Assembly: GCA_019058315.1 (NCBI GenBank)
Contig: JAHPZH010000011.1
Location: 1-31,445 of the forward strand
Length of the DNA stretch: 31,445 bases
Direction: 5' to 3'
Source of the DNA: Candidatus Helarchaeota archaeon
Lineage (GTDB): Archaea; Asgardarchaeota; Lokiarchaeia; Helarchaeales; RDOG01
Position 1 is the first letter of the stretch, and the number at the start of each line of letters is the position of its first letter. The translations under genes were made by a program, and so were the position numbers. The notes under the pieces were generated by a model. The model was not told the DNA's origin. It ran no database searches and worked only from the letters and a program-made list of their open reading frames with translations. Shown piece after piece: positions 21,521 to 24,777 of this stretch.

Positions 21521-22069
21521 TTGAGTTTGGATGAAAATACAAAAGGGTTCATGAAAGAAATAATCGAATTCATTTCATTAATTAGAGCATCAGAAAAAGA
21601 GAGATATGAATTACAAAAGAAATTTATGGAAGATACAATAAAAGCTATTAGGGACATTTCAGAATCTATAAAAGCAAGTACTGAATACATGCGGACAAGC
21701 ATTGAAAAATTGAAAGAAACTTTGTCGACTGGTATCAACAACATTAGGAAAGAAATGAATTTAGATTCCATAATTGAAGCAAAGAAAGCTTTAGGAGAAA
21801 CTATTGATATTTTACAAAGAGAAACTCAATTATTTGAATTCAAGCAAACAATTCATGAAATTCGTTCGTCATTAGAAAATATACAACAAAAAAATCTCCA
21901 AAAACAATCAAAAAATCCACAATTAACTGCAAGTGAAAATGATTTTCTAGAAAACGAAAAAATTCAAGAAGAAAGTCCTATAGAAAGGGTTTCTGATCTT
22001 GAAAAAGAAGAACATGTAAAAAAGAAAAAAGATGTAAAAAAGGACGAAAAATTCCATATAGAATTTTAA
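21521..22069 (+). CDS. Hypothetical coiled-coil protein with charged C-terminal tail
   Basis: Heptad-rich helical sequence; converges on the next gene with stop codons 1 nt apart. Confidence 0.7.
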   Translation: MSLDENTKGFMKEIIEFISLIRASEKERYELQKKFMEDTIKAIRDISESIKASTEYMRTSIEKLKETLSTGINNIRKEMNLDSIIEAKKALGETIDILQRETQLFEFKQTIHEIRSSLENIQQKNLQKQSKNPQLTASENDFLENEKIQEESPIERVSDLEKEEHVKKKKDVKKDEKFHIEF

Positions 22070-22070
22070 A

Positions 22071-22505
22071 TTAGCTTTTAAATTCTTTTATCTCATTAGC
22101 TAAATTCTTTAAATCAGATACTAGGGTTTGATAATCCACATAATACATTTTTTTTTGTAGCCGTTCAAGTACACTATAAAATTCATTTGTAATTGATTTT
22201 TGCTGATCTGTCATATTTAATGCTATTTCTCTAATAGCTTCAATTGATTCTATATTTTTAGAGAACATGTTAAAAACAGTTTTGAATTGAGTATCTCTTG
22301 AAGAACGAATTAAATCGGTTATTGTTTGAAAATTTTCCGAAACTTCAACAATTCGATTAAGTAAATTATCAGATAACATTTCTAATGATTTATTTAATGA
22401 TGTGATCGATTCAGTAACTTTCTCCATCCATTTATATAAATCATCAATTACAGCTACAACAAATTTAATTGTAGTCTTTTCACTAGCCCCTTCCATACAT
22501 ATCAC
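22071..22505 (-). CDS. Hypothetical coiled-coil protein
   Basis: Helical and proline-free; GTG start overlaps the upstream TGA (alternative ATG at 22496). Confidence 0.7.
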   Translation of the reverse strand: MICMEGASEKTTIKFVVAVIDDLYKWMEKVTESITSLNKSLEMLSDNLLNRIVEVSENFQTITDLIRSSRDTQFKTVFNMFSKNIESIEAIREIALNMTDQQKSITNEFYSVLERLQKKMYYVDYQTLVSDLKNLANEIKEFKS

Positions 22506-22897
22506 TGTTTATTATTAATTAATTTTACAATTTCTTTTATTTCAGTAAGAATATTTTTTAAATCTTCAGGTGTAGCTTTTTCTTTGAGATCGGGAGATTT
22601 AATATCAGTTTTTAAATCATTAACCATTTTATTAAGTTTTTCCAATTCAAAATAATCAAAAAATTTTTTAATTTCTGTGACATTTTTTTCAGCTAAATCA
22701 GAAATCAACTTATTAGATTTTTGATCTTCCGCTTTGATGAAATCTACCATATCACGAGTATCCTTGGAGAGTATACCTATTTTTTCATCTACAAGATTGT
22801 GGATTTTATTGATCTGTTTTGCAACTTTATCTAACGATCCCATAAATTGCTCAAAAGATTTAGAAATATTTTTTAAATTCTTTAATGCCTCTTCCAT
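22502..22897 (-). CDS. Hypothetical coiled-coil protein
   Basis: Helical heptad pattern; starts 55 nt downstream of the GTPase gene. Confidence 0.7.
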   Translation of the reverse strand: MEEALKNLKNISKSFEQFMGSLDKVAKQINKIHNLVDEKIGILSKDTRDMVDFIKAEDQKSNKLISDLAEKNVTEIKKFFDYFELEKLNKMVNDLKTDIKSPDLKEKATPEDLKNILTEIKEIVKLINNKQ

Positions 22898-22952
22898 TTC
22901 ATTTTCAACTTAATTAAGAGTTAAAGGCTTATTGTTATGCAGGTTTAAAAAA

Positions 22953-23459
22953 TTAATAAATATTTATTAAATAATCTATAAAATAATTAAAAGCTTCGTC
23001 AATTCTCTTACCAGTTCGTGCCGAAGTTTCAAAAAAGAACATTTTATTTTCTTCTGCAAATTTTTTTCCCTCTTCTGTTGGGACTACTTGTTCAAGATCT
23101 ATTTTATTTCCAATTAATATACAATGAACATGTTCTTTATTTCCTTCAACAATTTCTTGATACCACTTAGAAACATTAGCAAAACTTTCAGGTCGGGTAA
23201 CATCATAAACCAACATTGCTCCTTGAGATCCTTGATAAAATTGTTCCCTTACTTGAGCAAATAACTCTTGTCCGGCGATATCCCAAAACATTAGCTTGAC
23301 TTGATTTTTACCATGTTGCATTTCCTTTCGAAGCATATTTACTCCGAGAGTTGGAAGGTAATTTTCACTAAATTTGGCATCTATATATCGATTTAATAAA
23401 CTTGTCTTGCCAACCGCATAGTCTCCTGCGACAATCACCTTAAAAGTAAATCTATCCAT
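22953..23459 (-). CDS. Rab-like small GTPase (Asgard type, no prenylation tail)
   Basis: G1 GDYAVGKTS, G2 PTLG, G3 WDIAGQE, G4 NKID, G5 ETSAR; RabF-like KLMFW, FYQGS and LVYDVT; GGAG upstream. Confidence 0.95.
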   Translation of the reverse strand: MDRFTFKVIVAGDYAVGKTSLLNRYIDAKFSENYLPTLGVNMLRKEMQHGKNQVKLMFWDIAGQELFAQVREQFYQGSQGAMLVYDVTRPESFANVSKWYQEIVEGNKEHVHCILIGNKIDLEQVVPTEEGKKFAEENKMFFFETSARTGKRIDEAFNYFIDYLINIY

Positions 23460-23583
23460 ATGTAAAAATCTCCATTTTTATTGATATGAGGTTATTCTAT
23501 AAGTTATAAGATAAAAAAGTCGGTAATATATAAATTTCATTTTTAATAATTATGAATAAAAAATTGGTATGAACGAATTCGCT

Positions 23584-24777
23584 TTACATCATACCTTCTA
23601 CAATTCTTAATTTAGACTCAAGCAAATCTTTTTCTTCATCTATTTCTCGAATTTCTCTGTAAATATTTTCTATTTTAATTTTATACTCTGAATCTGAGAT
23701 CACTCTAGAATTGTATTGTTTTTGAATATAGCTCCTTAATTTAATTGAAGATTCTTTTCTTAATTCTAATTCTTTTAATTTTTTATTAATTTTGTCTATA
23801 TTCGTAACTTTTTCATCAGCTTGTTCTTTGAAAGCAGTTGGTAACTTTATATTTAGTCTTTTTGAAATCATTTTTATAAGAAATTCGAACCTATTTTTTA
23901 ATATTTTAAACTTTCCAAAATCTTTTTGAGTTCCTTTTAATTCTTCTATGATTTCTAAAGTCGATTTAATTTGATTTTTAAAACTTTCATCTTCTATTGG
24001 TATTTTTTCAATTTCTTCAGAAACTGGTTTTGGTTTGACTTGAGTTTTTAATATTTGTGGCATTTCAAATTTTATTGTAGGAGCCTTAATTGCTTGGACC
24101 TTTTCTTCTCCCAATAGCCAATTAATGGCATTAATAAATAATTGCTTATTCTTTTGTGAGTCAATCCCACCTCTAACATCATATCGAAATTGGGAATATG
24201 CTCCTGATATTAAAACTCGCCCAAATTTTAGTTTGGAAGTTGCTAAAACAGCTTTTTTAGCTGGAATTGCACTTCCACTAGTCCATGCAATAGCTTTGGT
24301 GGAAGTAGAAGAAATTATCTCCAAACTACAACCTTTTGGATAAGAGAATTCGTTAATATCTTGAGTAAAAATTGGATGTAATTTGATATCTTTAATAACT
24401 ACTATTTCTTCATCATCCAAAGAATTTTCACTATCTTTTACCTTATCATCATTAAATTTTACCCCAAATTTCTTTGATAGATCGTTTAAATTAGACATAT
24501 GGGCTCTATCCCCTCCAGAATTTCCTAATATAAATAATCCATTCCCTTTCTCTACAAATTTAATAATATCATTTATCTCATTTTCGGATAAATTATTTGT
24601 AGGTTGTGCAATTATAAAAATTCTATATTTTGAAATACTTTCGAAATTGATTGGAAATTCTTTATATGTTCTCAATCTAAATTTTTCAGGATCTAGTAAA
24701 TCTCGAAGCGTTTTATAAGTATTTTTTAAATTTCCTTTTTCACCATGCGAAAAATTGATTGCTATTGAAACACTCAA
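23584..24777 (-). CDS. GIFT (IFT52/GldG/DUF4350-like) domain protein with C-terminal coiled coil
   Basis: INFSHGE...YKTL...IIAQP...LSENEINDIIKFVEKGNGLFILGNSGG...NLNDLSKKFGVKFNDDKVKD...YPKGCSL...GRVLISG...NKQLFINAINWL. Confidence 0.8.
   Translation of the reverse strand: MSVSIAINFSHGEKGNLKNTYKTLRDLLDPEKFRLRTYKEFPINFESISKYRIFIIAQPTNNLSENEINDIIKFVEKGNGLFILGNSGGDRAHMSNLNDLSKKFGVKFNDDKVKDSENSLDDEEIVVIKDIKLHPIFTQDINEFSYPKGCSLEIISSTSTKAIAWTSGSAIPAKKAVLATSKLKFGRVLISGAYSQFRYDVRGGIDSQKNKQLFINAINWLLGEEKVQAIKAPTIKFEMPQILKTQVKPKPVSEEIEKIPIEDESFKNQIKSTLEIIEELKGTQKDFGKFKILKNRFEFLIKMISKRLNIKLPTAFKEQADEKVTNIDKINKKLKELELRKESSIKLRSYIQKQYNSRVISDSEYKIKIENIYREIREIDEEKDLLESKLRIVEGMM

Follow-up and report, generated by a model that had tools for sequence, protein, structure and literature searches.

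A soluble IFT52-type GIFT protein gene beside a Rab-like GTPase and coiled-coil genes in a Helarchaeales archaeon: probably two adjoining units

Background

In one lineage of Helarchaeales, the gene of a soluble IFT52-type GIFT protein lies next to the genes of a Rab-like GTPase and of three coiled-coil proteins (CC1, CC2 and CC3). What a sequence-only reading of this DNA had proposed as a proto-IFT module is most likely two units, since elsewhere in Asgard archaea the neighbours of the GIFT gene are genes of DNA replication, not of GTPases: a GIFT gene linked to the replicative family-B DNA polymerase (PolB) and a GTPase/coiled-coil operon probably adjoin here.

IFT52 (OSM-6/BLD1), a member of the IFT-B1 core, forms the backbone of the cilium-building machinery. 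Besides IFT52, eukaryotic IFT-B contains the non-prenylated Rab-like GTPases IFT22 and IFT27 and the coiled-coil subunits IFT74/81. To our knowledge, GldG-like proteins of bacteria are usually given as the only prokaryotic roots of IFT52, and our literature search found no paper naming IFT52 together with Asgard.

Results

Layout of the locus

The window, i.e. the whole stretch of DNA that was analysed (31,445 nt), comes from an Asgard archaeon of the Helarchaeales type. The features considered here, with genes given as open reading frames (ORFs), are the following:

24777..23584, minus strand: GIFT-like protein gene (ORF, 397 aa)
24103..24777, minus strand: GIFT domain, residues 1-225 (class I glutamine-amidotransferase-like fold, pLDDT 94-99)
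23590..23988, minus strand: C-terminal helical region of the GIFT protein, residues 264-396 (DSSP on the AF2 model)
23460..23583, minus strand: GIFT-GTPase spacer (124 nt, sequence read directly)
23459..22953, minus strand: Rab-like small GTPase gene (ORF, 168 aa)
22897..22502, minus strand: CC1 gene (ORF, 131 aa, all-helical)
22505..22071, minus strand: CC2 gene (ORF, 144 aa, all-helical)
21521..22069, plus strand: CC3 gene (ORF, 182 aa), convergent on CC2

The ORF coordinates agree exactly with what the sequence-only reading had described for the five genes, both in order and in spacing (124 nt between GIFT and GTPase, 55 nt between GTPase and CC1, and a 4-nt overlap of the CC1 stop with the CC2 start). 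The GIFT gene begins with TTG, preceded by GGTGA, and this start agrees with the N-termini of its orthologues; its neighbours in the host genome are TauE, HemD, the GTPase and genes of unknown function. The spacer has a T-run immediately 3' of the GIFT stop codon and, about 70 nt upstream of the GTPase start, a TTTATATA-like element; in this AT-rich DNA the two may be a terminator and a separate promoter. Signal peptides and transmembrane segments are absent from all five proteins (Kyte-Doolittle 19-residue maximum 1.03).

The GIFT protein

Residues 5-113 of the GIFT protein match the Pfam family IFT52_GIFT (PF23355) with 52.6 bits (cut-off 27.2), while the score against ABC_transp_aux (PF09822) is lower (41.3 bits, above the cut-off of 34.7) and that against DUF4350 stays under the Pfam cut-off (18.8 bits); past residue 118 there is no Pfam match. 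The head also matches CrIFT52 (5fmr_A) directly in a phmmer search (E 3.9e-7). In Foldseek, the AF2 model (pLDDT 88 overall) finds the IFT52N structures 5fms and 5fmr (mouse and Chlamydomonas) far ahead of other solved structures, with target-normalised TM-scores of 0.85-0.90 and an rmsd of about 2 A for IFT52 structures (5fms_B: E 2.4e-18, TM 0.86, rmsd 2.2 A over 225 columns). OST48, the next solved fold, is nine orders of magnitude weaker, and no GldG structure is among the solved-structure matches. Judged by Pfam scores and fold ranking only, the assignment to IFT52 rather than to generic prokaryotic GIFT domains, which the sequence-only reading had made by eye, is thus borne out: IFT52N ranks first in profile and fold alike. 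That reading had also called the protein cytoplasmic, and indeed it has no hydrophobic segment (Kyte-Doolittle maximum 0.83 over 19 residues). It is a true IFT52-type GIFT protein, soluble and cytosolic.

Clan and fold are shared with GldG/ABC_transp_aux and DUF4350, and some orthologues carry the NCBI name 'Gldg family protein'. Proteins of the GldG type, however, are secreted or membrane-anchored and encoded beside ABC-transporter genes (gldA/gldF), whereas the window protein is neither anchored nor located beside such genes. With IFT52 (5FMS, 5FMR, 8BD7) the head shares the fold, detectable sequence homology and a cytosolic location, but the likeness ends there. The middle and C-terminal parts of IFT52 have no match in the GIFT protein, and the alignment with full-length IFT52 (8bd7_B, 454 aa) is confined to the N domain (about 255 columns, target-normalised TM 0.44 in Foldseek). 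In place of the IFT88/70-binding middle and the IFT46-binding C-terminal domain of IFT52, the Asgard protein possesses a coiled coil and a SHOCT-like hairpin: in its AF2 model, DSSP assigns helices to residues 264-283, 287-308, 317-356 and 362-396, the last pair of which bears a SHOCT-like motif (VISDSEYKIKIENI) that is kept in Lokiarchaeia homologues, and one member of the family matches Pfam SHOCT. Near-invariant in the Asgard family are His134 and Gly-Cys-Ser 149-151, the Cys of which corresponds to Ala in CrIFT52, in a low-confidence stretch of the alignment.

GIFT genes and their neighbours in Asgard archaea

The IFT52-like GIFT family is present above cut-off in 133 of the 151 genomes of the phylum and in none of 14 controls, and all 84 members scanned with Pfam match IFT52_GIFT. 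The host genome has about eight GIFT paralogues; orthologues of the window protein are 56-87% identical to it.

Outside the window, the order of the five genes was seen again only in close relatives, on eight contigs that are collinear from PolB to the cfb cluster (ApgM identity 75-92%), and it is kept down to 56% GIFT identity. GIFT, GTPase, CC1 and CC2 remain co-oriented in the eight contigs, although three of them (L087-L089) have TauE, encoded on the opposite strand, between GIFT and GTPase at the position of the spacer. Synteny across Asgard archaea, by which the proposed module could be judged, does not extend further: a GTPase lies near GIFT at 1 of 40 loci in the phylum sample, and GTPase neighbours occur at 3 of 21 GIFT loci in the class sample. 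No Ras-like neighbour was found beside the 21 nearest GIFT homologues in 41 genomes of the class.

The conserved company of the GIFT gene is of another kind. In the window's clade it stands head-to-head with PolB, PolB(-) and GIFT(+), in contigs L087-L093 (L094 ends just upstream of GIFT), and the same arrangement is found in both contigs of the sister clade (L096 and L097), where the linkage of GIFT to the GTPase is absent. PolB is orthologous between the two clades (52-67% identity), and in L096 PolB and GIFT are followed by an OB-like gene and PCNA. Across the phylum sample, 30 of the 40 loci have GIFT beside replicative PolB or directly before DNA ligase; PolB is at most three genes away in 20 of the 40, Rad50 is a neighbour in 17, and an ATP-dependent DNA ligase follows directly downstream in 10. 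In contrast to IFT52, the Asgard GIFT gene keeps company with PolB, ligase and Rad50, not with transport genes. This association holds for the orthologues of close relatives and for the sister clade but not for the host genome, in which PolB lies on contig C6, away from the GIFT gene; the GIFT tree lacks the resolution to assign the latter as an orthologue of the PolB-linked genes found across the phylum. This PolB is also a direct neighbour of the CC trio in other Helarchaeales, and therefore the five genes and PolB may all share one larger conserved neighbourhood.

The Rab-like GTPase

The GTPase matches Pfam Ras (PF00071) with 177 bits. With the Asgard Rab 7EZB and the eukaryotic Rab1/5/10/35 it shares the five G motifs, all intact (GDYAVGKT, T37, WDIAGQE, NKID, ETSAR), and the catalytic Gln; it differs from eukaryotic Rabs in having neither a hypervariable tail nor a prenylation Cys. 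Indeed, the protein stops just past the G domain (...DYLINIY), its sole Cys is internal, and a C-terminal prenylation Cys motif is absent from the sequence, which confirms the tailless Rab-like GTPase of the sequence-only reading. Its best PDB matches are Ypt51, Rab5, Rab10, Rab35, Rab1 and the Thorarchaeota Rab 7ezb (E about 1e-34 to 1e-35). The suggested equivalence with IFT22 or IFT27 did not hold: the best 60 PDB matches are Rabs, Ypts and an Asgard Rab, with neither of the two among them, and the protein shows no specific affinity to IFT22, IFT27 or RABL2. The host genome has about 76 GTPase loci, and among them this tailless Rab-like protein of the Asgard type is unremarkable; the closest relatives of the protein have other gene neighbours.

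The CC1-CC2-CC3 trio

None of the three CC proteins matches a Pfam family above cut-off. Profile comparison with hhalign connects CC1 with CC2 (92.7%, E 4e-7) and with CC3 (89.9%, E 1.7e-6), and the three are paralogous helical proteins. CC3 has a conserved N-terminal helical domain (motif FMKE..EF.SLIRASEKERYE), followed by a disordered K/E/P-rich tail and a conserved EKFHIEF at the C-terminus. Searches of the PDB with the three profiles returned designed or viral coiled coils only, which were taken as compositional matches, and an ESM Atlas search with CC2 returned nameless Asgard clusters only. DASH_Duo1, DASH_Dad1 and BLOC1_2 were rejected as identities, their sub-threshold Pfam scores being heptad noise; the resemblance to the small coiled-coil subunits of BLOC-1, BORC and DASH is one of analogy, not homology.

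CC1 adjoins CC2 across the class, and CC3, convergent in the window, is co-directional with CC1-CC2 in other families (L063-L066). The spacing of GTPase, CC1 and CC2 (19-57 nt) is retained in the eight contigs, and in the seven of them with a whole CC1 (it is cut short in L090) CC1 and CC2 are separated by anything from a 4-nt overlap to a 21-nt gap. Outside the window's clade, the small GTPase was not found beside the trio. CC2 homologues occur in Lokiarchaeales, where CC1-CC2 lies beside a longin-TPR protein, and in genomes G001, G002, G005 and G006, where CC1-CC2-CC3 is accompanied, despite rearrangements, by a 166-178 aa protein, an Arf-like GTPase and a 126-aa protein. The longin-Arf-like GTPase near the trio measures 420-666 aa (Pfam Arf, 70 bits), and the 126-aa neighbour has a longin/roadblock fold (pLDDT 89.6) whose best structural matches are GATOR1 (Nprl2/3), DENND1B, Ragulator (LAMTOR) and Asgard roadblocks. 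Within the order, the trio stays with GTPase or longin genes in three families despite inversions and insertions.

Longin-domain proteins are typical GTPase regulators. The clustering of CC genes with longin-fold proteins elsewhere recalls the longin/roadblock systems (Ragulator-Rag, GATOR1, DENN, Mon1-Ccz1 and bacterial MglA-MglB), but the window itself has no longin gene, and the CC proteins have no recognised counterpart in those systems.

Discussion

Two probable units at one locus

Beyond the domain identities, gene orders and taxonomic spread documented above, we infer operon boundaries, complex formation and functions of the two units as follows. The first unit is a soluble member of the phylum-wide IFT52-like GIFT family with a non-enzymatic-looking head, a coiled coil and a SHOCT-like, presumably oligomerising tail; its conserved genomic partner is replicative PolB, elsewhere PolB and Rad50, or DNA ligase, and by this synteny, seen among related and hence non-independent genomes, the protein may act as a scaffold or adaptor in a replication or repair context, not in trafficking. 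The second would be an operon of the Rab-like GTPase, CC1 and CC2, with the convergent CC3, in which the CC proteins most probably assemble into a hetero-oligomeric helical bundle serving as effector or platform of the GTPase switch. Of the single GTPase-regulated complex proposed earlier, the part comprising GTPase and coiled coils is plausible, given the clustering with longin and GTPase genes, while membership of the GIFT protein finds no favour with its PolB, Rad50, ligase and PCNA neighbours.

A possible partnership of GIFT and GTPase

Alternatively, GIFT protein and Rab-like GTPase may be a genuine pair, the head being a platform, effector or regulator of the GTPase that was recruited beside the CC operon, with no homology to IFT-B implied. 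We regard this as unlikely, although it draws on more than the adjacency retained in the window's clade. In another Asgard lineage, an independent family of fusion proteins (P0092 and P0161-P0164, 64-78% identical to one another) has a GIFT domain at residues 9-231 and a Ras-like GTPase at residues 291-452, and is conserved in five protein clusters from several contigs; it shows that two such domains are able to act within a single polypeptide. In three genomes, moreover, a Rag-like GTPase gene is divergent to another GIFT paralogue, and each of the three associations (window, fusion and Rag-like) belongs to a different clade of the GIFT tree. In view of the fusion and the Rag-like neighbour, a partnership therefore retains some probability. 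Yet the fusion GTPase domain was rejected as an orthologue of the window GTPase (rank 2-13 among paralogues), a TauE gene intervenes between GIFT and GTPase in three contigs, and the phylum- and class-wide counts of GTPase neighbours have to be set against a background of 14.6% of genes in the host genome with a GTPase within 6 kb.

At the locus itself, the GIFT-GTPase link is weak. With 76 GTPase loci in the host genome, the chance of a Ras-like GTPase within 300 nt is 2.7% per gene, and that of at least one of the approximately eight GIFT paralogues having such a neighbour is about 20%; the adjacency alone is therefore not beyond chance. Complex predictions pairing the GIFT head with the GTPase, CC1 and CC2 gave an ipSAE of 0.00 in runs that had no controls, and speak neither for nor against an interaction.

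Possible neutral inheritance of the gene order

Quite improbable, in our view, is that the five genes are functionally unrelated and merely kept a neutral gene order passed down in a young clade. Such inheritance would fit the collinearity of the PolB-to-cfb region among the eight contigs, the abundance of GTPase loci in the host genome and the restriction of the small GTPase beside the trio to the window's clade. It does not fit the operon-like spacing of GTPase, CC1 and CC2 with its 4-nt overlap, nor the persistence of the trio with GTPase or longin genes in three families of the order and of CC1-CC2 with a longin neighbour in another order of the class, both despite inversions and insertions.

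Relation to IFT-B

As a long shot, the GIFT head might be a docking platform for Ras/Rab proteins, and the association of IFT52 with small GTPases and coiled-coil partners in IFT-B might descend from an archaeal assembly of GTPase, GIFT protein and coiled coils, possibly located originally at the replisome or chromosome and not at membranes.

That the five products assemble into a single cytoplasmic complex, regulated by the GTPase and analogous or ancestral to IFT-B, for which the true IFT52N-like head, the co-orientation in eight contigs, the GIFT-Ras fusion and the binding of the coiled-coil pair IFT57/38 with the help of eukaryotic IFT52N, through a conserved K130/R204 surface patch (PMC4818760), can be adduced, deserves very little credence, as the match to IFT52 is restricted to the head, the GTPase is nearest to Rab5/10/35/1, the gene order is confined to close, fully collinear relatives and broken by TauE in three of them, and the CC proteins, paralogues of 131-182 aa with PDB matches to coiled coils only, lack the length and the N-terminal CH domain of IFT74/81, whose equivalents they had been thought to be. 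A composition mirroring that of IFT-B is not supported for the set.

Conclusions

Whether GTPases and coiled coils were already partners of the Asgard GIFT family is the question that this locus addresses, and here the answer is mostly no. Since the conserved company of GIFT consists of replication and repair genes, attention shifts to PolB, PCNA, ligase and Rad50. Two by-products of the analysis are the GIFT-Ras fusion family and an undescribed paralogous helical trio of Lokiarchaeia. The trio has longin-domain proteins and, within the order, an Arf-like GTPase as neighbours, and may add a new part to the GTPase switches of archaea. The soluble IFT52-type GIFT family itself occurs in almost every Asgard genome sampled and is a candidate for a eukaryotic signature protein.

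Setting of the five genes

The window is an entire 31.4-kb contig (C12) of a 5.8 Mb archaeal genome with a G+C content of about 28%; the orthologues that bear names are from Helarchaeota and other Asgard MAGs. On reading the ORFs, the five genes, their strands, the gaps of 124 nt and 55 nt and the 4-nt overlap agree exactly with the sequence-only reading; no hydrophobic segment is present in any of the five proteins and no C-terminal Cys in the GTPase.

Features of the window
1-900: archaeal 16S fragment
19604-21398, plus strand: two tandem TauE/SafE sulfite-exporter-like genes, flanking the cluster
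25224-26201 and 26574-28709, plus strand: ORFs of 325 and 711 aa, no Pfam match
28815-30871, minus strand: ORFs of 238, 186 and 253 aa, no Pfam match

An IFT52-type head domain

Among Pfam families, residues 5-113 of the GIFT protein score highest with IFT52_GIFT (52.6 bits, cut-off 27.2), ahead of ABC_transp_aux (41.3 bits) and with DUF4350 under its cut-off. Plain phmmer places Chlamydomonas and mouse IFT52 as top PDB matches (E 3.9e-7). For an AlphaFold2 (AF2) model that rests on an alignment of 84 sequences (pLDDT 94-99 across residues 1-225), Foldseek ranks IFT52N first (5fms, 5fmr and 8bd7; E 2e-18 to 4e-11, rmsd about 2 A), with a target-normalised TM of 0.85-0.90 against isolated IFT52 N-domain structures; weaker folds (OST48, ThuA-like, beta-galactosidase B domain) do not begin until E 4e-9. 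Beyond the head the model consists of a linker and four helices, with a SHOCT-like motif, common to Lokiarchaeia homologues, in the terminal hairpin. Because nothing in this tail matches the middle or C-terminal parts of IFT52, the IFT52-type identity claimed for the gene stands for the head domain but not for the remainder.

The family comprises 806 clusters at 50% identity (E up to 1e-3) and exceeds the Pfam cut-off in 133 of the 151 genomes of the phylum versus none of 14 control genomes. His134 and Gly-Cys-Ser 149-151 (window 24103-24777, minus strand) are conserved at 83-95% among 84 Asgard GIFT proteins, which suggests that a residual active site, catalytic or metal-binding, may exist here; opposite the family's Cys, CrIFT52 has Ala, at a place where the phmmer alignment is of low confidence. 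The family Asp8 (93%) is replaced by Asn in the protein of the window.

Gene order and the genomic link to replication and repair genes

The five-gene order is confined to eight contigs of close relatives. In 41 genomes of the class, the 21 GIFT homologues that come nearest (about 30% identical) have neither a Ras-like GTPase nor a coiled-coil (CC) gene within 5 kb. Instead, three contexts are conserved around them: GPN-loop GTPase, nucleotidyl transferase, then GIFT; ParA, HDAC, a 189-aa protein, GIFT and a long coiled-coil protein; and a divergent Rag-like GTPase. Closer orthologues (56-87% identity), retrieved by a word-indexed protein search, lie on eight contigs with the order PolB (minus) / GIFT, GTPase, CC1, CC2 (plus) / CC3, TauE (minus) / HemD, ApgM, CfbE; one of these, L094, is cut just upstream of GIFT, so that its PolB end is not visible. 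Since these relatives are close and collinear throughout (ApgM 75-92% identical), the five-gene order may simply be inherited, and in three of the eight an opposite-strand TauE gene separates GIFT from the GTPase. In the genome studied here, ORFs without Pfam match (25224 onward) occupy the head-to-head PolB position and mark a rearrangement breakpoint.

Loci in relatives (contig:positions)
L030:3401-4898, same positions in L032 and L034: Gtr1/RagA-like GTPase (323 aa) and 193-aa protein, conserved divergently upstream of a different GIFT paralogue; three genomes of the order
L087:7189-7992, L088:7077-7886: extra TauE copy inserted between GIFT and GTPase in some relatives
L087:2032-5817, L088:1929-5696, L066:66-3872: cluster-adjacent PolB with intein (Intein_splicing, LAGLIDADG), the intein absent in other relatives
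L095:2240-3646, L098:7001-8416: GIFT-Ras fusion genes (about 470 aa), another Asgard lineage
L063:7331-11753, L064:6919-11571, L065:3665-7838, L066:4228-9439: CC1-CC2-CC3 with companions, next to PolB in four genomes
L100:3245-5988, L101:2730-6034: companion operon without CC genes, own genome

The clade that a GIFT-head tree places as sister to that of the window (proteins P0046, P0050 and P0061) likewise shows PolB (minus) / GIFT (plus), with an orthologous PolB (52-67% identity) and, in one contig, an OB-fold-like gene and PCNA next. The top IFT52_GIFT place was then sampled in 40 further genomes (L103-L142, 6 kb on each side), which span at least eight GTDB families, related genomes not being independent. 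PolB of the same type lies at most three genes from GIFT in 20 of the 40 loci, often with HIT and PCC-domain genes in between; 17 of these also have Rad50. In 10 loci the gene directly after GIFT is an ATP-dependent DNA ligase, and in 6 GIFT is paired with a B3_4-domain gene, as a third context. A Ras, Arf or Rag GTPase occurs in a single locus.

The GTPase and its relation to GIFT

All G motifs of the GTPase are intact. It had been likened to IFT22/IFT27. Neither of these is among its top 60 PDB matches, and the relatives of known structure that come nearest are Ypt51/Rab5, Rab10, Rab35, Rab1 and a Thorarchaeota Rab. The closest relatives of the GTPase have unrelated neighbours.

That GIFT and GTPase are genuine partners we regard as unlikely. 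A conserved GIFT-Ras fusion elsewhere in Asgard archaea and a clade with an adjacent Rag-like GTPase speak for such a pairing, although the neighbourhood counts reveal no general enrichment. The genome holds 76 loci of Ras-like GTPases, and a random gene has a GTPase within 300 nt 2.7% of the time; with about 8 GIFT paralogues, the chance that one or more have such a neighbour is therefore about 20%. The fusion is found in five protein clusters (P0092, P0161-P0164; 64-78% mutually identical) on several contigs, and in P0092, which belongs to the GIFT alignment, the Ras-like GTPase occupies residues 291-452, C-terminal to the GIFT head. Its GTPase was considered as an orthologue of that in the window and rejected, and its GIFT head falls in a different clade; the fusion is thus an independent event. 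On L098 the fusion gene and a second PolB paralogue are neighbours in convergent orientation, near RadA.

The coiled-coil genes and their company

At profile level CC1 and CC2 (92.7% probability), and CC1 and CC3 (89.9%), align over most of their length, and although helical repeats inflate such scores, we read the three as paralogues. The trio is kept in four genomes (G001, G002, G005 and G006) from three families of the order, adjoining the same PolB together with three further genes: a 166-178 aa protein, a 420-666 aa GTPase with an Arf-like centre (70 bits) and an N-terminus weakly resembling the Fuzzy/Mon1 longin domain, and a 126-aa longin-fold protein. The AF2 model of the last (beta-beta-alpha-beta-beta-beta-alpha-alpha, pLDDT 89.6) best matches longin/roadblock domains of GATOR1, DENND1B, the SEA complex, FLCN-FNIP2 and Ragulator, and Asgard roadblocks. 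In Lokiarchaeales, the gene after CC1-CC2 encodes a protein of 301 aa with an N-domain homologous to the 126-aa protein. In the window's own genome, the operon of small protein, Arf-like GTPase and longin protein lies on two other contigs (C6 and C1), apart from the CC genes, which here come after the Rab-like GTPase rather than that operon.

Across the class the CC proteins are accompanied by longin proteins, and across the order by a GTPase, which supports a GTPase-centred role of GTPase-CC1-CC2(-CC3). The disordered Lys/Glu/Pro-rich tail of CC3 (21521-22069, plus strand) ends in EK(F/Y)HI(E/D)F, which is conserved in the window's clade and may be a short docking motif.

Implications

The GTPase-regulated module proposed for this locus is partly supported: it is plausible for the GTPase-CC unit but not supported for GIFT, which elsewhere is linked to PolB or ligase, and the five genes are best read as a lineage-specific juxtaposition. 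With IFT52 the locus shares the head domain but no other defining feature, and apart from that head none of the features that define IFT-B is found; the analogy with IFT-B is weak. IFT52N is a head that binds proteins and is not an enzyme; it and IFT88 jointly make contact with the coiled-coil pair IFT57/38 (PMC4818760). By analogy, the archaeal GIFT head would most likely serve to dock proteins, carried on an oligomerising stalk, and a replication or repair factor would be a more probable client for it than a GTPase. The Helarchaeales cluster of CC trio, Arf-like GTPase and longin protein appears to be undescribed, and this CC-longin-GTPase cluster and the GIFT-Ras fusion family constitute new leads.
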